Shown here piece after piece: positions 2,249 through 52,714 of a DNA stretch of 64,000 nucleotides. A program made the position numbers and the translations under genes. The notes under the pieces are model-generated. The model made no database searches and was not told the origin of the DNA. It saw only the letters and a program-made list of their open reading frames with translations. Each line of letters starts with the position of its first letter. Within the stretch, counting starts at the first letter, position 1. This stretch comes from an uncultured Gammaproteobacteria bacterium (GTDB lineage Bacteria; Patescibacteriota; Microgenomatia; UBA10105; UBA927), in NCBI GenBank assembly GCA_964445435.1, contig CAYUKU010000005.1, positions 6,627 through 70,626 on the forward strand, written 5' to 3'.

Positions 2249-2575
2249 TTATTCCTTTTTCTTCTGTATCTGTTTCCAGTGATAAAGGTAGAGCGGAAGT
2301 CCTACGATGACCATGGCAATGGCACCCGAAAATTCGCGCTGTCTTTGGCGGGTAATTTCACGGCGTTGCTCCATTTTCCACTGCGTCTCGCTCATCGCTG
2401 GTTCTCCCGGCATTTTTTCAGGCACAGGCATGGAATAACTCATATATTCATCGGCACCGCGGAAAACCAGAACCTTCAATCCCAGATCAACGATCCGGAT
2501 GCTTCCAATGACGGCAACAAGAAGACCGATGAACGAGAAAAGGTAAAGATAGAGGAGTCGGATATTGAATTTCAT
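2249..2575 (-). CDS. small membrane protein (two predicted TM helices)
   Basis: 108-aa ORF with hydrophobic N- and C-terminal segments, co-oriented with the flanking genes. The overlapping plus ORF 2015-2623 is low-complexity. Confidence 0.4.
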   Translation of the reverse strand: MKFNIRLLYLYLFSFIGLLVAVIGSIRIVDLGLKVLVFRGADEYMSYSMPVPEKMPGEPAMSETQWKMEQRREITRQRQREFSGAIAMVIVGLPLYLYHWKQIQKKKE

Positions 2576-2619
2576 ACGTACAACTCAGTGTATAAAGATG
2601 CGGATGAATTGACAAGGGA

Positions 2620-4011
2620 TTAGTTATAAATTACGACTCTCGTCCCGATATCCGCGAATTGGTAGACATATTTCGCGTCGCCCACGCCCAGCGCCACACA
2701 GCCTCCTGTGTTGGGTTGTCCGATGAAATTTGGCTTGCGATACTCCTGCCCGTTAATAAGTTTGTAGGGAGTTTCATGGATACCGAAATAGGCGTTCAAT
2801 TCCTCACTGTACTTAAATCCCATCCAGTACGGGAGCCACGACTTGTAGATGTTTGAGAATCCGAGCCCCGTTTTATTAAGAATTGTAAATTCACCCGTGG
2901 GTGTAGGATAGTCCAGACCTGTCGAGACGCGAAACGTTTTTATGAGCCTTCCGTCCTTGAAAAGGTACATTTTCTGCTGAGAGATATCGACCTCGATGTA
3001 TTTATCGGTTATCGATCCGGTTGTATTGGGCCCGGTATCGATGCTGATGGTGAGGGCGTCCACGGTATGTCCGTCATATCGGTTGGTAAGGACGGCCTGG
3101 AGATCCTCAATGACCTTCGGGGTGACGACGTTGCCCCGGATGATGAGTTTGAGCTTTTTGACTTTTTCGTTGACGGTTGTAGTCAAAGGCGCTTCTTTTA
3201 CCCCTATGGTGACGGATGTCTGGTCTTCCGACAGCTGAATATCAGTCATATCCGCAAGTTCCTTTTCGGTGAGGATAAACGCTTGTGACGTGCCTCCGGT
3301 GTCCACCAGAACGGTGAGCGGGGTGAGAAATACGTTTTTCATCCGATTACTCGTATCGGCGATCAATTTCGCTTTTTCGTTTTCGATTCTCGTGAGTTTG
3401 GGATAGAGGGGAGCGGTATTGTCCCCGATCCGTTGAGAAAGAAGCCGCATGAAGTACTCCTCATCGATCCGGTAGCGTTCTTCGTTTTCCACATAGACGA
3501 GTGACTTTTGCTGGTCATCGAAGTAGATTTCATCGGGAGCCTCGCTGAATTCAAAAACGGTCTGTTTGATATATTCACTGAATTCCTGGGTAAACGTGAG
3601 GGGAGCTTCTATCGTGGCGGGAATGAAAAACGACTTCACAAGGGTGTAGATATTGAAGGGGAGCGGCGCACGGTTCCGCGCAAATATCGCCTGCTTGATC
3701 CTTTCGTTATCCAAAACGACGCCCAGTTTGGAGTAGATGTACGTATACTCGCGGTCTCGCACCCGCACGCGGTACGGAAGAAGGGCAAACGAATCGATGA
3801 GATGGTCCACTTCGCTGACGCTTTTACCGGAGATGTCGATCGTGCCGAGCTTTGTATGAGGATACACCCACCAGGTCGCGTAAATTTGTGAGGCGGCGAG
3901 GAGATACAAAATAAATAAGGTAAACAGAAGAAGTTTTACGCGTTTACGAAGCATCCATACACGCTTAGCGTAGTAGGTTGCCCGATGAAGGTGGATCAGA
4001 TGTTTTCTCAT
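2620..4011 (-). CDS. L,D-transpeptidase (YkuD/ErfK domain) with N-terminal membrane anchor
   Basis: C-terminal HETPY...NTGGCVALG matches the YkuD catalytic His/Cys motif. An N-terminal TM segment is present. The start may instead be the internal Met at 3954. Confidence 0.75.
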   Translation of the reverse strand: MRKHLIHLHRATYYAKRVWMLRKRVKLLLFTLFILYLLAASQIYATWWVYPHTKLGTIDISGKSVSEVDHLIDSFALLPYRVRVRDREYTYIYSKLGVVLDNERIKQAIFARNRAPLPFNIYTLVKSFFIPATIEAPLTFTQEFSEYIKQTVFEFSEAPDEIYFDDQQKSLVYVENEERYRIDEEYFMRLLSQRIGDNTAPLYPKLTRIENEKAKLIADTSNRMKNVFLTPLTVLVDTGGTSQAFILTEKELADMTDIQLSEDQTSVTIGVKEAPLTTTVNEKVKKLKLIIRGNVVTPKVIEDLQAVLTNRYDGHTVDALTISIDTGPNTTGSITDKYIEVDISQQKMYLFKDGRLIKTFRVSTGLDYPTPTGEFTILNKTGLGFSNIYKSWLPYWMGFKYSEELNAYFGIHETPYKLINGQEYRKPNFIGQPNTGGCVALGVGDAKYVYQFADIGTRVVIYN

Positions 4012-12001: not shown

Positions 12002-12087
12002 GACCCCATCAAGCTTGACACCGCCTTCATCGTTGTCTACCATACTCTTGGAGGTACCGTAAAAGAGTGCGGAAATTGGAAATTTTT

Positions 12088-12245
12088 AAGCGTGTGGCCC
12101 GCCGGCGAGGCGGGATACGAGGGAAGGGCGTATCGAAATAATCTGCGGGTGCCCTTTGGTAGTTGCTCCCTACCACAACAGCGATTCGGAAACCTCCCGG
12201 TAACGGAAGAACAACGAAGCTGACGGAGTCCGCCTCTTATCATCG
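12088..12245 (+). ncRNA. glmS ribozyme-like 5' leader (glucosamine-6-phosphate-responsive self-cleaving riboswitch), putative
   Basis: A 230-nt leader sits between a TTGACA-17-TACCAT promoter (12015-12043) and the glmS ATG. It contains ACGAGG...ATCGAA...TCTGCGGGTGCCCTT, which parallels the B. subtilis core ACGAGG..UAUCGAAUU..UCGGCGGAUGCCUCC. It also has GGTAACGGAAG (compare GUAAGGA) and a GAAGGGC/GCCCTT stem. Confidence 0.45.
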
Positions 12246-25984: not shown

Positions 25985-27100
25985 TTGTTGGCTGTTTTCC
26001 CTATGATACTTACTGCCATCGTTTTTTTCGTCATTTTAAGCATACTTATTTTTATCCACGAGCTGGGTCATTTTTCGGTTGCCCGGTGGATTGGCGTTCA
26101 TGTGGAAGAATTCGGATTCGGACTTCCGCCCAGGATATGGGGGAGGAAAGTCGGAAAGACCATATATTCTCTCAATTGGTTGCCTATAGGCGGATTCGTC
26201 AAATTAGCCGGAGAAGATGAGGACCAGCGGGATACCTCCAAACACAAAGGTGCAGTTTTGAAAGAGTATTTCTTCGCGCGTAGCAAAAAAGAACGGGCCT
26301 CGATTCTTCTGGCCGGCGTGACGATGAATTTTCTCCTTGCCGTTGCGATCACGGCGTTTTTACTGACCCAGGGAATTTTCGAGCCGGCTGGGCGTGTACA
26401 TGTTAAGCGGGTAATCGCCAACAGTCCTGCCGAGGCCGTTGGCATCAAGGCCTCCGACATCGTGAAAAGCATCAGTTTTACGACCCCGGATGGGACAGTT
26501 GAGACGCGGGCAATTGTGGTGCCCAAGGATCTTATCGATACGACGAAGGCGCACGCGGGGGAGACTGTGACGGTAACGATTCTTCGGGGAGATGCGTTAC
26601 AATCAGTAACGCTTGTTCCGCGCAAAGATCCGCCACCCGGAGAAGGAGCCATGGGAGTCTCCATCACCGATTTGGAGGAAAGGAAATATCCATGGATAAC
26701 TGCACCATTTCAGGCGTTTATGATGAACGTTGCGCGTGCCCGCGATATGCTCGTGGGCATCGCAACGACTCTGTGGCGTCTGGTTCGTCTCGAACCGGTC
26801 GGCGCAGATATCGCAGGCCCGATTGGGATCGCCCAGGTGACGGGTCAGGCAGTGCGGTTCGGGTGGCGGGCGGTTTTGGAATTTATGAGTATTCTTTCTC
26901 TCAACCTCGCGGTACTTAACGTGCTACCCATTCCGGCGCTCGACGGCGGTCGGCTTCTTTTCGTATTCCTTGAGAAGGTGTTAGGGAAGAGGGTTCGGCC
27001 CGCATTCGAGCATTCCGCGCACCAGGTGGGCATGATAGTGTTGCTGTTTCTGGTGTTTCTTGTTTCCATAAACGATATTTTGCGGCTTGCGCGAGGTTGA
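25985..27100 (+). CDS. rseP: RIP zinc metalloprotease (site-2 protease, RseP-like)
   Basis: HELGHF zincin motif, a PDZ-like middle region and a C-terminal LDGG. Confidence 0.85.
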   Translation: MLAVFPMILTAIVFFVILSILIFIHELGHFSVARWIGVHVEEFGFGLPPRIWGRKVGKTIYSLNWLPIGGFVKLAGEDEDQRDTSKHKGAVLKEYFFARSKKERASILLAGVTMNFLLAVAITAFLLTQGIFEPAGRVHVKRVIANSPAEAVGIKASDIVKSISFTTPDGTVETRAIVVPKDLIDTTKAHAGETVTVTILRGDALQSVTLVPRKDPPPGEGAMGVSITDLEERKYPWITAPFQAFMMNVARARDMLVGIATTLWRLVRLEPVGADIAGPIGIAQVTGQAVRFGWRAVLEFMSILSLNLAVLNVLPIPALDGGRLLFVFLEKVLGKRVRPAFEHSAHQVGMIVLLFLVFLVSINDILRLARG

Positions 27101-27125
27101 CAGCGGCACATCGGTGCCGTACTGT
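27097..27125 (+). promoter_or_regulatory. promoter TTGACA-17-TACTGT, leaderless start at 27132
   Basis: A perfect -35, 17-nt spacer, -10, then 6 nt to the ATG. Confidence 0.5.
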
Positions 27126-27131
27126 TTAACT

Positions 27132-27986
27132 ATGCTGTCACGATACGGTGAATGGTTAGATAACGCAGTGTGGGGTATACTCATCCTTCTTTTGGTTCCG
27201 GCAGGATTTGCCATCACCTCGTGGAACAGTTTGCCCGGATCGGGACTGTATGGCATCCGTCAGGTGATGGAGAAGGTATTGGTTGCCATTGCGCCCGGAA
27301 GTCAGGCGAAGGGGCAATTGTACGTCTCGTTTACGACCAGGGGAGCTCGGGATGCGGTTCAGGTCTTAAGCGATAACGGATCAACGGCGGGACTCACATA
27401 CCTCAACGCGCATGTTACCGCAGCGAAAGAAAATATCGAGAAAACTTCGGATGCGAAAGTCCGGGCCAAGCTTGCCCGGCAATACATCGCGACCCTGAGG
27501 GAAGCAAACTCGACACTTGAACAGCAGAAGCAGATTATGTCAGGCACAACCCCCCGCCGTGCCACCACTCCAAGGACGACTGCTGCGCCCACATCGCGTC
27601 CGAATAACGCAACATCAACGCCTGCGCCAAATTCCGGTAATCCGCCCCCACCTGATCCGGTTGATCAGATTGAGGATACGCAAAACCAAATTGAGGATAC
27701 GATTGAAGACCTGGAAGAAGAGGCCGCTCTGGATATTCCTCAAATGGAGGGCTTAACCGGGGATGTACCCCCTACGAGTACCAGTACTCCTATCCCGACA
27801 TTCACACCTACGCCCACTTCGCTCCAACAAATGAACAGTTTTGGCGCCGACCAGAATGAAGAGAATGATGACAATAGAGGTGGGAATAATAATCGCGGAA
27901 ACGATGACAACGATGGAAACAACAGTGGAGGCGAGGGGAACAGCGGCGGCGGCAATAGCGGTTCAGGACGGTCGGGAAACCACTAA
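27132..27986 (+). CDS. membrane-anchored secreted protein with Pro/Thr-rich and Gly/Asn-rich low-complexity C-terminus
   Basis: TM helix near the N-terminus, a PT-rich linker and a GN-rich tail. Confidence 0.45.
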   Translation: MLSRYGEWLDNAVWGILILLLVPAGFAITSWNSLPGSGLYGIRQVMEKVLVAIAPGSQAKGQLYVSFTTRGARDAVQVLSDNGSTAGLTYLNAHVTAAKENIEKTSDAKVRAKLARQYIATLREANSTLEQQKQIMSGTTPRRATTPRTTAAPTSRPNNATSTPAPNSGNPPPPDPVDQIEDTQNQIEDTIEDLEEEAALDIPQMEGLTGDVPPTSTSTPIPTFTPTPTSLQQMNSFGADQNEENDDNRGGNNNRGNDDNDGNNSGGEGNSGGGNSGSGRSGNH

Positions 27987-28030
27987 TGGGTTTTGTTGAA
28001 TCTTAGAGAGAACAGGTGTATACTGACAAG

Positions 28031-28175
28031 TGACATGTGTCCCGAGTACCGACCGGGACGATACAGTCCCGCTAAAAACGGGAACGGGTATGCCCGTAAC
28101 AGCTGCCAATGAGAAGTAAATAAGGTGGTACCACGAGTAACCGCTCGTCCTTATAGGGAAGGAGGCGGTTTTTTT
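28031..28175 (+). promoter_or_regulatory. T-box riboswitch leader (specifier CCG = Pro) with short Stem I, controlling csaA-proS
   Basis: Promoter TTGAAT-17-TATACT at 27996-28024. Stem I hairpin GTCCCG-aguaCCGAc-CGGGAC presents CCG followed by A. The T-box consensus AAGGTGGTACCACGAG includes the UGGN bulge. An antiterminator ACGAG/CTCGT + AAGG/CCTT alternates with a terminator hairpin ending in a U7 run just before the ATG. Confidence 0.55.
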
Positions 28176-28511
28176 ATGGCAACATATGATGATTTTTTGA
28201 AACTTGATATTCGGGTCGGGAAGATAATCACAGTTGACGATTTTCCAGAGGCGCGAAAGCCCGCCTACAAAATCACGATCGACTTCGGATCAGAGATTGG
28301 CACGAAGCGAAGTAGTGTCCAGATAGTCAAGCACTATAAGAAGGAGGATCTGCTTGGGAAAAAAGTCCTGGGTGTGGTCAATTTCCCTCCACGGCAAATC
28401 GGTCCTTTTCTATCAGAAGTACTTACGTTGGGTGTTCCCGATACTGATCATGAGTGTATACTGATAGTGCCGGACATGGACGATGCTGTTGTGGGCGGTA
28501 AATTATATTAA
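28176..28511 (+). CDS. csaA: tRNA-binding protein (CsaA / EMAP-like OB fold)
   Basis: LDIRVGKIITVDDFPEARKPAYKITIDFG. Confidence 0.8.
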   Translation: MATYDDFLKLDIRVGKIITVDDFPEARKPAYKITIDFGSEIGTKRSSVQIVKHYKKEDLLGKKVLGVVNFPPRQIGPFLSEVLTLGVPDTDHECILIVPDMDDAVVGGKLY

Positions 28512-49821: not shown

Positions 49822-51354
49822 TTATTGCACGTTTCTCTCAGCGAGTTGTTCGAGGAATTTCATGAGGACGGCGTATAAATCCACGACGGATTGGACATTG
49901 ACTCGCTCTGTCGTTTTGTGCGGATTTTCAATGGTCGGTCCGATGGAGACGGAAATCAAGTGAGGATACAGAAGCGCTATGGTGCCACATTCGAGTCCGG
50001 CGTGGGTACCCGTCAGTTTAAACGGGAGACCGAGAGATTCGTACGTCTCTTTGAGGATATGAATAAGTTCGCTCTCATCGTCTGCGACCCAGCCTTTGAA
50101 GTCATTGGATTGCTCCACTGCGGCGCCGTATTTTTCCCCGATTCGGGCGATTACTTCCCGGATTTGTTCCCGGTGATCTTCGCTGATACTCCGGGACATG
50201 GAGGTGACTTCAATGGCTTCCTCGGTTTGCCGTACGAGCGCCATGTTCGTCGAGGTATCGATGACACCAGGGAATTCTTCGCTCATGTGCCGGACACCAT
50301 GCGGCACATCAGTGAGAAGCTCAAGGAGCGTATGTGCTGATGCGTCTGTGAGCGCCTCGGTATACGTGCCTTGCTCAATTGTTGTAGCTTTCATTGTGAT
50401 GCCGGGTTCGTAATGCATATTTCTGCGGAAGAAAAGCTGCCACTGGTCGATGAATTGTTCAAACGCTTCTTCATATTGCGGGTCGTAGGCGATAATTGCG
50501 CGGGAGCGGGGAGGGATAGCATTTTTGGCGGTGCCACCCTCCACCAATATGAATTTAGCCGAGAGTTCGCCTTGCGCGGTCTTAAGGACGCTTGTCAGGA
50601 GTTTCAGAGCATTTTCGCGGGTCTGTGCGATATCAAGTCCAGAGTGTCCTCCGAGAAGTCCGTCAAGATCGATTTGTGCGACGCGAAGGTTCGGGTCGAG
50701 CGTTTCTTTCTCGATTGCGAGAGTCATCTTCGTATCGCCGCCGCAGGCGCTTGAGATAGCTGCCTCATTTTCCCGTTCCCAGTCAAGATTCACGAGATAC
50801 GTATATTGGGAAAGATCGAATGCGAGCGCTTTGGCGCCGTCCATACTCGTTTCTTCTTGGGTGGTGAAGAGAAATGCCATGTCGCCATGCGGTGCCTCGG
50901 TTTTCATGAGGGTGAGCATGGTTGCAATCGCAATACCGTTATCGGCTCCGAGGGTTGAGTCTATGGACGTCAGCCATTCTCCTGTAGCGTCAAGTCCAGG
51001 AACGACCCCTTCCGTTTCCGGATGTGTGAGCGCCTTTTTGCCGGCGTCACACACCATGTCCATATGCCCTTGAAAGACTATGCCCGGCAGGTGGTCATAG
51101 CCTTCGGTTGCCCTGACGCGCACAAGGAGATTGCCGATGTCATCATGTTCTACGGCGAAACCTTCGGCCAGAGCTTTCTCGGAGATATACTCCGCCATGA
51201 ATTCTTCCTGCTCGCTTTTTCGGGGGATGGGGCATACGCCCAGGATAAATTCGCGGAATATCGCCTCCGCTTCGGGCGGTAATTCTTTGCGCTCGGCAAG
51301 CTCGGCAAACGTTCGCTCCCGAATTTCAGTTGCGCTTGGTGCTCCCGTGTTCAT
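49822..51354 (-). CDS. pepD: aminoacyl-histidine dipeptidase (M20C, PepD-like)
   Basis: The N-terminal region aligns with E. coli PepD (FxEFxxICxIPRxS, GxVFQGHMDMV). Start trimmed to the Met at 51354. Confidence 0.8.
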   Translation of the reverse strand: MNTGAPSATEIRERTFAELAERKELPPEAEAIFREFILGVCPIPRKSEQEEFMAEYISEKALAEGFAVEHDDIGNLLVRVRATEGYDHLPGIVFQGHMDMVCDAGKKALTHPETEGVVPGLDATGEWLTSIDSTLGADNGIAIATMLTLMKTEAPHGDMAFLFTTQEETSMDGAKALAFDLSQYTYLVNLDWERENEAAISSACGGDTKMTLAIEKETLDPNLRVAQIDLDGLLGGHSGLDIAQTRENALKLLTSVLKTAQGELSAKFILVEGGTAKNAIPPRSRAIIAYDPQYEEAFEQFIDQWQLFFRRNMHYEPGITMKATTIEQGTYTEALTDASAHTLLELLTDVPHGVRHMSEEFPGVIDTSTNMALVRQTEEAIEVTSMSRSISEDHREQIREVIARIGEKYGAAVEQSNDFKGWVADDESELIHILKETYESLGLPFKLTGTHAGLECGTIALLYPHLISVSIGPTIENPHKTTERVNVQSVVDLYAVLMKFLEQLAERNVQ

Positions 51355-51436
51355 AGGGTACGAAAAAGCCGCTTTCCGGCGGCAGTTGAGAAGGAGTATA
51401 CGGCGGAAAGCAGGTGCTGTCAACGAAGGAGAACGG

Positions 51437-52714
51437 TTAGTTGTCAGGCAAAAGTGAAGCAAGGGAAAAATCCGGTCGTACCCACTCTGGGGGTGGGGCA
51501 ATTTCAACTCGACGCAGTTGGTTAGCCACGCGGTGAACGAATTCATAAATAAGTTCGCCGTTTCTAGCACCGTGGCGGAACGCTTCGGCTACAACCGCTG
51601 CATGATCGACATCTGCACTTCCGCTTCCGACGATGTCCGTGGGAAGGGCAATAAGAAGGAGCGGGAAATCCGGTTCGAAGTAATGATCGTCTCCGTTTAC
51701 GTGATGTCTTGCGATAGTCTGCCTGATAACATCCGCTTCGAATGACAGGCCCATATCGTAGAAAAGCGATGTGACGAGGAGAGATTCAAACATTTCTTTC
51801 GCCTGCGCATCCAAGTGATGGGCTACGTGCGAGAAAGCTGCCAGCGCAAATCCGCGGTCAAGTTCTCCCTGATATGAGGTAGTGCCGACGGTTCCCAGTG
51901 CTGCGGCGGGTCCGACCCTGATGTCCCTATTTGACGCAAGCTTAAAGAAAAGTTTTGCAAGGGAGCCGTCGGAGGCACGGCCCAATTTGGGCTGGAATCG
52001 TTCGCCGATAAGTGGATCCAGAAGATTTCTGGGTCCCGCTCCAGCGCTCAGGCCGGCTCTTCCACCGGCTGCTTCAGTATGATCGATGACGATACCAAGA
52101 TCGCCGGGTCTGAGCGGTGATTCTTCATCAACGCCGATCAAGTATGTGCATACAATCGCGCACTCCTGGCCTCGCTCCCGCTGCCGTCGCGCGAGTTCTT
52201 TTATGACATTAAACGGCCTGGCATAATTGAGTTCCGCAAATGCCTGGCCGATACCGGAGTACGGGTGCGCACGACCGAAGAACAGAAGCGCGCTTTGCTT
52301 TTCATCGATGGGAAGCGATTTAGCCTGCCCCGCATGGCCACCTATGTCCGCCGGCTGGAAATAAGGGAGTGGTCCTTTTTTGTCTCCATATGTCCCCAAG
52401 TAGACTGCATCCTCCGGTCCGTCAAAGCCCGCAGTATAGTACACAAACACAGTCGGCAGGGGGATGCCAAGTCGATTGTGTTCTTCTTCTATCATGTCTG
52501 CCTGAGTTTTGATGAGAAACAGTTCCTGGACTTGAGCGGCCTGCGAGAGTTCCCAGAGGTTCCTTGCATCCAGTTCAGGCGCTATACGATGGAGAAATTC
52601 AGGACGCAGAGGATTGCCGTCTTCTTCTTTGCGCCCGGTAACGGCAGCAGTAAATGCTGCTGATGGAATAAGTGTTTCCTCTGGCATCGTTGTGGTAGAG
52701 CAGGCCACTGGCAT
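51437..52714 (-). CDS. hypothetical protein (425 aa)
   Basis: Long ORF co-directional with pepD. No confident motif. Confidence 0.45.
   Translation of the reverse strand: MPVACSTTTMPEETLIPSAAFTAAVTGRKEEDGNPLRPEFLHRIAPELDARNLWELSQAAQVQELFLIKTQADMIEEEHNRLGIPLPTVFVYYTAGFDGPEDAVYLGTYGDKKGPLPYFQPADIGGHAGQAKSLPIDEKQSALLFFGRAHPYSGIGQAFAELNYARPFNVIKELARRQRERGQECAIVCTYLIGVDEESPLRPGDLGIVIDHTEAAGGRAGLSAGAGPRNLLDPLIGERFQPKLGRASDGSLAKLFFKLASNRDIRVGPAAALGTVGTTSYQGELDRGFALAAFSHVAHHLDAQAKEMFESLLVTSLFYDMGLSFEADVIRQTIARHHVNGDDHYFEPDFPLLLIALPTDIVGSGSADVDHAAVVAEAFRHGARNGELIYEFVHRVANQLRRVEIAPPPEWVRPDFSLASLLPDN

Follow-up and report, generated by a model that had tools for sequence, protein, structure and literature searches.

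What kind of regulatory RNA stands in front of the csaA-proS operon, which encodes a CsaA-like tRNA-binding protein and prolyl-tRNA synthetase (ProRS), in the 64-kb stretch of contig CAYUKU010000005.1 analyzed here (hereafter the window), and how might it sense proline-specific tRNA? A first-pass annotation, made from the letters of the DNA alone, had read the leader of this operon as a T-box riboswitch, a member of the class of regulators that serves as a model system for RNA sensing RNA. Our analysis indicates that the leader is very probably a functional, compact proline-specific T-box that controls the csaA-proS operon of a Patescibacteria bacterium. Judged by its conservation, it is a genuine T-box, a compact variant retained across Patescibacteria.

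Inspection of the leader confirmed the presence of every feature that the first-pass annotation had listed (promoter, Stem I, T-box core, antiterminator, terminator and a run of seven U residues), and added to them a mini Stem II (28066-28084), a IIA hairpin (28085-28096) and the recognition that Stem III is missing. The elements are as follows.

27996-28024, plus strand: sigma-70-like promoter, TTGAAT (27996-28001) and TATACT (28019-28024) around a 17-nt spacer
28031-28175, plus strand: putative proline T-box leader, 5' of the csaA-proS operon
28039-28059, plus strand: ultrashort Stem I, 6 bp, GUCCCG (28039-28044) with CGGGAC (28054-28059)
28045-28053, plus strand: Stem I apical loop, 9 nt, AGUACCGAC, with the proposed Specifier CCG at 28049-28051 followed by the purine A28052
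28066-28084, plus strand: mini Stem II, five Watson-Crick pairs of U28067-G28071 with C28079-A28083, closed by G28066.A28084
28072-28078, plus strand: Stem II loop, 7 nt, A-rich (CUAAAAA), without an internal S-turn
28085-28096, plus strand: Stem IIA hairpin, C28085-G28088 with C28093-G28096, loop UAUG
28093-28099, plus strand: F-box-like CCCGUAA, within the IIA element (28085-28103)
28092-28093 with 28102-28103, plus strand: candidate IIB pseudoknot, G28092-C28093 with G28102-C28103, two G-C pairs
28111-28121, plus strand: purine string GAGAAG (28111-28116) and then UAAAU, matching the 5'-RRRxG ... AA-3' flanks of Stem III
28122-28152, plus strand: discriminator/antiterminator, two helices around the 7-nt T-box bulge
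28122-28137, plus strand: T-box core AAGGUGGUACCACGAG, bulge UGGUACC at 28126-28132
28122-28125 with 28149-28152, plus strand: lower antiterminator helix, AAGG with CCUU
28133-28137 with 28144-28148, plus strand: upper antiterminator helix, ACGAG with CUCGU
28139-28175, plus strand: intrinsic terminator, 28139-28145 and 28148-28152 with 28159-28170, 12 bp with a 2-nt bulge
28159-28165, plus strand: Shine-Dalgarno (SD) sequence AAGGAGG, inside the 3' arm of the terminator
28169-28175, plus strand: U7 tract, directly before the ATG at 28176

The core of the leader is a perfect match to AAGGUGGUACC, and a AGGGUGGNACCGCG-like T-box sequence with its 7-nt UGGNACC bulge lies between two antiterminator helices. 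Both of these helices had been recognized in the first-pass annotation, although its labels A1 and A2 are the reverse of those in published work, in which A1 denotes the lower helix and A2 the upper (PMC7583486), a cosmetic matter. The T-box element, counted from Stem I through the antiterminator, measures 114 nt (28039-28152), and the minimum-free-energy fold of the complete leader contains three 5' hairpins followed by the terminator. The promoter matches the consensus at 9 of 12 positions, a level at which four sites were found in the region against 3.3 expected, so that taken alone it does not stand above chance; promoter-like hexamers recur at the equivalent relative position in the leaders of eight relatives (L086, L101, L132, L004, L088, L100, L091 and L099). 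From the position of the promoter, transcription is predicted to start at about 28029-28032.

A scan of the whole window against Rfam at gathering thresholds reported two tRNAs and a glmS ribozyme only, and no T-box. Under a permissive local scan, the T-box family RF00230 aligned to the leader at 42.2 bits (E = 2.7e-8), against a gathering score of 93. In this alignment the 3' two-thirds of the element (the Stem II-like hairpin, IIA, T-box and antiterminator) are placed at high posterior probability, the Stem I columns are forced at low posterior probability onto the promoter and the upstream open reading frame (ORF), and Stem III is represented by 2 nt as compared with 17 in the model. The low score thus reflects the absence of the interior of Stem I and of Stem III, the core itself being good.

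Scanning metagenomes with CsaA and then looking up the contigs recovered approximately 25 homologous leaders from Patescibacteria metagenomes, upstream of csaA-proS, proC-csaA-proS or ocd-csaA-proS. Against a covariance model (R1) built from 12 distinct leaders, the window leader scores 127.5 bits; 13 more distinct leaders score between 54 and 127 bits (L084/85, L162, L132, L091, L192/198, L083, L093, L100, L191, L101, L086, L094 and L090), and about 11 divergent ones between 18 and 38 bits (L004, L099, L088/89, L157, L096, L107, L013, L012, L003, L105/106 and L116). None of the 18 family members tested reaches the RF00230 gathering threshold, which the proS leader of a Bacillota control (L032) passes with 108.9 bits; annotation by the Rfam threshold therefore overlooks the entire leader family. 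The first-pass annotation had held that its reading would fall if RF00230 scored below threshold and if, in addition, no orthologous leader preceded proS in related genomes. The score is indeed below threshold, but orthologous leaders upstream of proS do exist in related genomes, and the interpretation stands. In the limited collection of literature that we searched, no report of T-boxes in Patescibacteria or the wider Candidate Phyla Radiation (CPR) was found. The T-box database TBDB draws its class I leaders from RF00230-type sources and searched with its class II model in Actinobacteria only (PMC7778990). Within the window, a T-box-like core, GGAGGGUGGCACC, also occurs at 50539 on the minus strand; it lies inside a 582-aa ORF (49822-51570, minus strand) and was set aside as a chance match, since the core sits in coding sequence.

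If the leader is a T-box, its helices should be maintained by compensatory change. Because MAFFT misaligned the long Stem III inserts of full-length leaders, these inserts were excised by hand to give a core alignment (A2) and a covariance model, and a model-fitted alignment (A3) was derived with 32 distinct rows. Across A3, 96.5% of the cells assigned to helices can pair, compared with 78.6% in shuffled alignments, none of which (0 of 500) reached the observed value, and sliding the 3' partners out of register lowered pairing to 59% or less. Double-sided changes occur at 21 of the 23 pairs, including all six in Stem I and all five in Stem II. RNAalifold, run on the MAFFT core alignment with no structure supplied, returned the same five helices.

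Examination of the individual helices reveals how variation is distributed among them. Stem I pairs in 85 of 85 cells of a hand-made table, with changes from C-G to U-A and from G-C to G-U, and is built from other stem sequences altogether in L192 and L091. Stem II likewise pairs at 100% in the hand table; four of its five positions covary, the G.A closing pair is conserved, and the loop follows the consensus C[UC]AAnAA. The IIA stem is almost invariant across the family and is adjoined by an F-box-like CCCGURA, and the IIA/B-type pairing between loop and linker comprises 3-4 bp of differing sequence in most relatives, as compared with two G-C pairs in the window. Within the antiterminator, the lower helix is invariant across the family and the upper helix covaries at all positions. 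The basal pair of this upper helix (28133/28148 in the window) is A-U here and alternates between A-U and G-C in the family. A G.U wobble at this position has been described as a steric sensor of the 3'-aminoacyl group (PMC7583486); in the proS leader of a member of the Bacillota (L041), the same pair appears on inspection to be G-C, and the non-G.U pair may be ordinary variation.

The near-identity of two of these hairpins raises the question of whether they fold independently. Stem I (28039-28059) and Stem II (28066-28084) are near-duplicates of one another (GUCCCG...CGGGAC and GUCCCG...CGGGAA), which could constitute a folding trap or a trace of duplication. One could imagine that the two cross-pair into a single long Stem I with CCG in an internal loop, the Class I arrangement of the Specifier, and in the window such a fold and the two hairpins differ little in stability (-18.0 vs -17.2 kcal/mol). 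The relatives, however, speak for the separate hairpins: these pair at 100% in 14 members, whereas the inner and outer helices of the alternative pair at 81% and 75%, and the cross-paired fold breaks precisely at the compensatory changes seen in L162, L091, L094 and L192. Cross-pairing is moreover impossible in the divergent L099, L157, L107 and L013, whose hairpins share no sequence; RNAalifold yields two separate hairpins; and the internal loop would hold the codon in its 5' strand, which is not where a Specifier loop has it. We consider the long Stem I very improbable and rejected it as not conserved.

What, then, does the separate Stem I hairpin present? In all members, the first hairpin carries an apical loop of 7-9 nt with a proline codon and a following purine on its 3' side. 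The codon is CCG followed by A in the window, its close relatives, L091, L192 and L004, and CCG followed by G in L088; it is CCC-A in L096 and L099, CCC-G in L107 and L013, and CCU-G in L157. The stem sequences around it are unrelated (GUYCCG, CAUCCUU, GUCCUG, AGGG, UUUGG, GCGG and ACGG), and CCN is the sole triplet that every apical loop shares. Together with the covarying helices, the short hairpin with its proline codon and purine, kept in approximately 25 leaders, bears out the proposal of a proline-specific T-box with a minimal Stem I. Proline specificity is independently supported by the genes of the operons (csaA-proS, proC-csaA-proS and ocd-csaA-proS), and the UGGU found in the bulge of all family members predicts a tRNA with discriminator A73.

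A hairpin loop of this size, roughly that of an anticodon loop, might alternatively serve as a protein operator, a tRNA-like hairpin bound by ProRS or CsaA for autoregulation, in the manner of E. coli threonyl-tRNA synthetase at the thrS operator; the operon does encode two tRNA-binding proteins. The loop, however, displays a codon (CCN) and not an anticodon (NGG), and so does not mimic tRNA-Pro, and the complete T-box core, with its UGGN bulge and its antiterminator/terminator pair, is the signature of direct tRNA sensing. An operator of this type is thus extremely improbable.

The expression platform bears on how a proline-specific T-box would act. As calculated with ViennaRNA, the terminator (-14.7 kcal/mol) is more stable than the antiterminator (-7.7 kcal/mol), and it overlaps the 3' half of the latter, such that the two folds are mutually exclusive. 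A hairpin followed by a U run and overlapping the antiterminator 3' half is found in 16 of the 17 relatives examined, no outcome having been reported for L107. These relatives differ in where the element ends. In nine of them (L083, L084, L086, L090, L162, L192, L091, L093 and L099), 13-150 nt separate the U run from the start codon that follows it, and the hairpin does not include the SD sequence; in the window, as in L094, L101, L132, L191 and L157, the SD sequence sits in the 3' arm of the terminator and the U tract adjoins the AUG. Between the T-box terminator and csaA, two lineages also carry a conserved palindromic hairpin, GCGAAUUCAnAUUCGC (at about 2395-2420 in L091 and 2075-2100 in L192).

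The layout of the window raises a second reading of the switch, in which control is mainly translational, the alternative hairpin sequestering the SD sequence as its counterpart does in actinobacterial Class III T-boxes, with the U tract incidental. The SD sequence is wholly contained in the 3' arm of the hairpin, U7 adjoins the ATG, the five relatives just named have the same layout, and T-boxes with a short Stem I are mostly translational (PMC10482949, PMC7583486). Yet the hairpin has the makings of a textbook intrinsic terminator, with 12 bp, a G+C-rich base and U7, and in the nine relatives whose SD sequence is outside the hairpin sequestration is impossible, so that a translational mechanism fails for the family. 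Those nine leaders indicate that the family works by transcription attenuation, and we regard a mainly translational switch in the window as unlikely, if still worth keeping in mind. The two modes of control are compatible, and the layout of the window allows both at once; termination and SD sequestration would then be expected to reinforce each other.

The compactness of the leader comes from the parts that it lacks. The long Stem I with its platform of interdigitated double T-loop motifs (IDTM) and its internal Specifier loop are all missing, Stem I consisting of a 21-nt hairpin, and Stem II has no internal loop able to form an S-turn. The purine flanks of Stem III are kept (GAGAAG at 28111-28116 and UAAAUAA), with no hairpin between them. 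Stem III is also lacking in L084/85, L132, L162 and L192/198 and, as judged from the sequence, in L091 and in the divergent L099, L107, L013 and L012; in L083, L086, L090, L093, L094, L101 and L191, inserts of 26-69 nt stand exactly between the conserved purine flanks. Inspection of L083 further revealed a canonical-looking kink-turn (K-turn) at the base of Stem I, GCA-AUA-GA ... GA-UGC.

Several of these observations weigh against the interpretation of the leader as a working, proline-specific T-box. Stem III has been described as an integral part, indispensable for binding the tRNA 3' end and sensing its aminoacylation (PMC7583486), and it is missing from the window; transcriptional T-boxes have been said to require the elbow-binding IDTM platform for fast tRNA capture (PMC7583486), and this too is lacking. 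At the Stem I base, inspection shows GU in place of GA on the 5' side and, counted from the predicted start of transcription, a 5' tail of about 8-10 nt, and a K-turn cannot be demonstrated there; the IIB pseudoknot is reduced to 2 bp. The RF00230 score lies under the gathering threshold (42.2 vs 93 bits), and the pair counts from A3 are biased towards the structure, since the model was used to fit that alignment. For the tRNA, the anticodon CGG and the discriminator A73 are predictions, no tRNA-Pro gene having been found in the 64-kb window or in 53 related loci. The T-box is also not universal in the clade: the two closest ProRS loci, L002 (ProRS 80% identical) and L001 (72%), have neither csaA nor the leader and could not serve in the comparison. 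Finally, tRNA binding and the response to charging are predicted features of the leader.

Some of the same facts would suit a decayed relic, a leader that has lost tRNA sensing along with the Stem I platform, S-turn and Stem III and persists as a constitutive attenuator or terminator only; the sub-threshold Rfam score, the missing parts that were reported to be essential (PMC7583486) and the close relatives that do without any leader (L001 and L002) would all be accounted for. Decay is difficult to reconcile, however, with compensatory changes kept in all five helices over many lineages, with a proline codon kept through the synonymous CCG, CCC and CCU in otherwise unrelated hairpins, or with an invariant UGGUACC bulge, and a constitutive terminator immediately before an essential aminoacyl-tRNA synthetase gene would be harmful. 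We accordingly hold a relic to be very improbable, and favor a functional T-box.

How might such a reduced T-box operate? As it emerges, the nascent leader would fold into the 21-nt Stem I hairpin, whose apical loop would present CCG and then A, and the CCG would pair with the anticodon of tRNA-Pro, most simply CGG. The 5-bp Stem II with its A-rich loop, together with IIA(/B), would probably pack on the resulting codon-anticodon helix. When the tRNA is uncharged, its 3' ACCA would pair with UGGU in the bulge and stabilize the antiterminator (28122-28152), allowing readthrough and leaving the SD sequence free. With charged tRNA, or none, the more stable of the two folds, the terminator (28139-28170 plus U7), would form and halt transcription immediately ahead of the ATG, and the SD sequence of any full-length transcript would be buried in its hairpin. 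On this model, Stem II and IIA would serve in docking, and the element would work in the absence of Stem III.

Comparison with the four T-box classes defined in PMC10482949 places the decoding end of the leader closest to Class III, the actinobacterial ileS T-boxes of Nocardia farcinica and Mycobacterium tuberculosis (PMC10482949, PMC7583486, PMC12647780). Both have a short Stem I without an IDTM and with the Specifier in its apical loop, both continue directly into Stem II, for which a need is presumed here as in Class III, and into IIA/B, whose IIB pairing is a candidate in the window, and they agree in the T-box bulge and in a discriminator of the antiterminator type; the alternative hairpin of the window also encloses the SD sequence. 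The likeness to truncated actinobacterial T-boxes that the first-pass annotation had drawn thus holds for the short Stem I and the apical-loop Specifier, and does not extend to the terminator platform, which differs from that mostly translational class. The apical loop comprises 7-9 nt here, as opposed to 5-6 nt in Class III (PMC10482949). Stem II has 19 nt, an A-rich loop and no S-turn, whereas those of M. tuberculosis (37 nt) and N. farcinica (48 nt) have an S-turn (PMC12647780). The S-turn of the elongated Class III Stem II, a string of five purines, latches the codon-anticodon helix and is not found in the window; by analogy, we infer that the A-rich loop of the mini Stem II may play a comparable role. 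Stem III is lacking in the window and several relatives, and an intrinsic terminator followed by a U tract, often apart from the SD sequence, forms the platform, as against the mostly translational control of Class III. The leaders further differ in specificity, operon and host (proline, csaA-proS/proC/ocd and Patescibacteria here; ileS and Actinobacteria there) and in size, with a core of about 114 nt compared with the 166-nt core construct of M. tuberculosis ileS (PMC12647780).

Class I, exemplified by B. subtilis tyrS and by Bacillota proS leaders such as L032, resembles the leader in other ways. It also attenuates through competing terminator and antiterminator folds, has the T-box sequence, and arranges Stem II, IIA with its F-box, and the purine string in the same order; the Bacillota proS members also share a proline Specifier followed by a purine and a position upstream of proS. 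The window nevertheless lacks the long Stem I of Class I, its AG bulge/distal loop (IDTM), its internal Specifier loop and a demonstrable K-turn, together with Stem II's S-turn and with Stem III. The Class II glycine T-box of B. subtilis glyQS is, like the window leader, naturally reduced and transcriptional, and it combines the loss of stabilizing parts with an all-G-C codon-anticodon helix (GGC/GCC there, and CCG/CGG as proposed here) (PMC7583486). In the parts that are retained, glyQS is the reverse of the window: it has the long Stem I with IDTM and Stem III and no Stem II or IIA/B at all, where the window has dispensed with the long Stem I and with Stem III and retains IIA and the mini Stem II. 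Strong codon-anticodon pairing has been argued to let glycine T-boxes dispense with Stem II (PMC7583486), an argument with which the all-G-C CCG/CGG pairing is in keeping, and such pairing may compensate for the missing parts of the leader.

Taken at their furthest, these comparisons would make the Patescibacteria leaders a previously uncatalogued fifth architectural class of T-box, and the smallest natural T-box (about 114 nt), with a Class-III-like apical-loop Specifier, a mini Stem II and a terminator, and without the elbow platform, the S-turn and, in approximately 40% of close members, Stem III. We put this forward tentatively, as a possibility somewhat short of an even chance. Were it true, co-transcriptional sensing of tRNA would not depend universally on the elbow platform, the S-turn and Stem III.

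The genes that follow the leader fit its predicted specificity. Two of them constitute the operon.

28176-28511, plus strand: csaA-like tRNA-binding protein gene, 111 aa, Pfam tRNA_bind, above the cut-offs of NCBIfam NF007495 and TIGR02222
28520-29971, plus strand: proS, archaeal/eukaryal-type (family I) prolyl-tRNA synthetase, 483 aa, with the Pfam domains tRNA-synt_2b, HGTP_anticodon and ProRS-C_1

The csaA-like gene is the first gene behind the leader, and the proS product scores 575.9 bits against TIGR00408 (cut-off 437). The first-pass annotation had assigned the leader to an operon for a tRNA-binding protein and ProRS, an assignment that csaA-proS downstream and the proline genes behind the relatives' leaders uphold. 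These genes are always proline-related: csaA-proS in the window, proC-csaA-proS in L003 and L116, and ocd-csaA-proS in L004 and L105. In L200 and L201, proBAC-csaA-proS likewise links csaA with proline genes, with no leader seen within the DNA fetched. A csaA-like gene adjoins proS in L003, L004, L105, L116, L200, L201 and L013, often behind proC, ocd or proB-proA-proC, and this adjacency in Patescibacteria suggests that CsaA may be a dedicated cofactor of ProRS or tRNA-Pro. Trbp111-type proteins bind the tRNA elbow, a contact that has no counterpart in the mini T-box; that the co-encoded CsaA/Trbp111-like protein compensates in trans for the missing parts is pure speculation.

The surroundings of csaA vary in other lineages. 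One of them (L171-L180) has a KilA-N domain gene at about 2505-3362, between csaA and proS and overlapping the end of csaA. In L081 (about 806-856), L088 and L089, a conserved element, GGGGCCUAG-N11-ACUAAACCCCAG, with a short hairpin replaces the T-box directly upstream of csaA; it matched none of the Rfam families and could represent an RNA motif not yet described.

On the 5' side of the leader lie genes for an M50 peptidase and a DUF5667-like ORF. The latter (27087-27986, plus strand) has a C-terminal tail of low complexity in which Asn, Gly and Asp abound; relatives keep the synteny, and their equivalents of this ORF likewise end in N/G/D-rich tails close before the promoter. The nearest relatives of ProRS and CsaA come from metagenome-assembled genomes (MAGs) of Patescibacteria/CPR, largely from groundwater, with source names that include Candidatus Gottesmanbacteria and Patescibacteria group, and by this measure of protein relatedness the host is a Patescibacteria (CPR) bacterium, Gottesmanbacteria-like. 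L002 (CAYGFH010000003.1), which shares the synteny of M50 peptidase, DUF5667-like ORF and proS with the window, belongs to a MAG labelled 'uncultured Gammaproteobacteria', a taxonomic label that is probably wrong. The other structured RNAs of the window are tRNA-Ile(GAU) at 518-590 and tRNA-Cys(GCA) at 729-803, both on the minus strand, and the glmS ribozyme at 12078-12232 on the plus strand (52.4 bits, gathering score 37), a second structured cis-regulatory RNA in this genome.

A conserved, terminator-using T-box family without the platform, without the S-turn and often without Stem III would directly test published rules for how T-boxes are built (PMC7583486), and the mini T-box would provide a minimal scaffold, taken from nature, for the engineering of switches that respond to tRNA. 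For the organisms themselves, the leaders and the genes behind them point, in all likelihood, to ultrasmall CPR bacteria, a group with almost unexplored gene regulation, that tie proline synthesis and charging to the status of tRNA-Pro by means of tRNA-sensing riboswitches.

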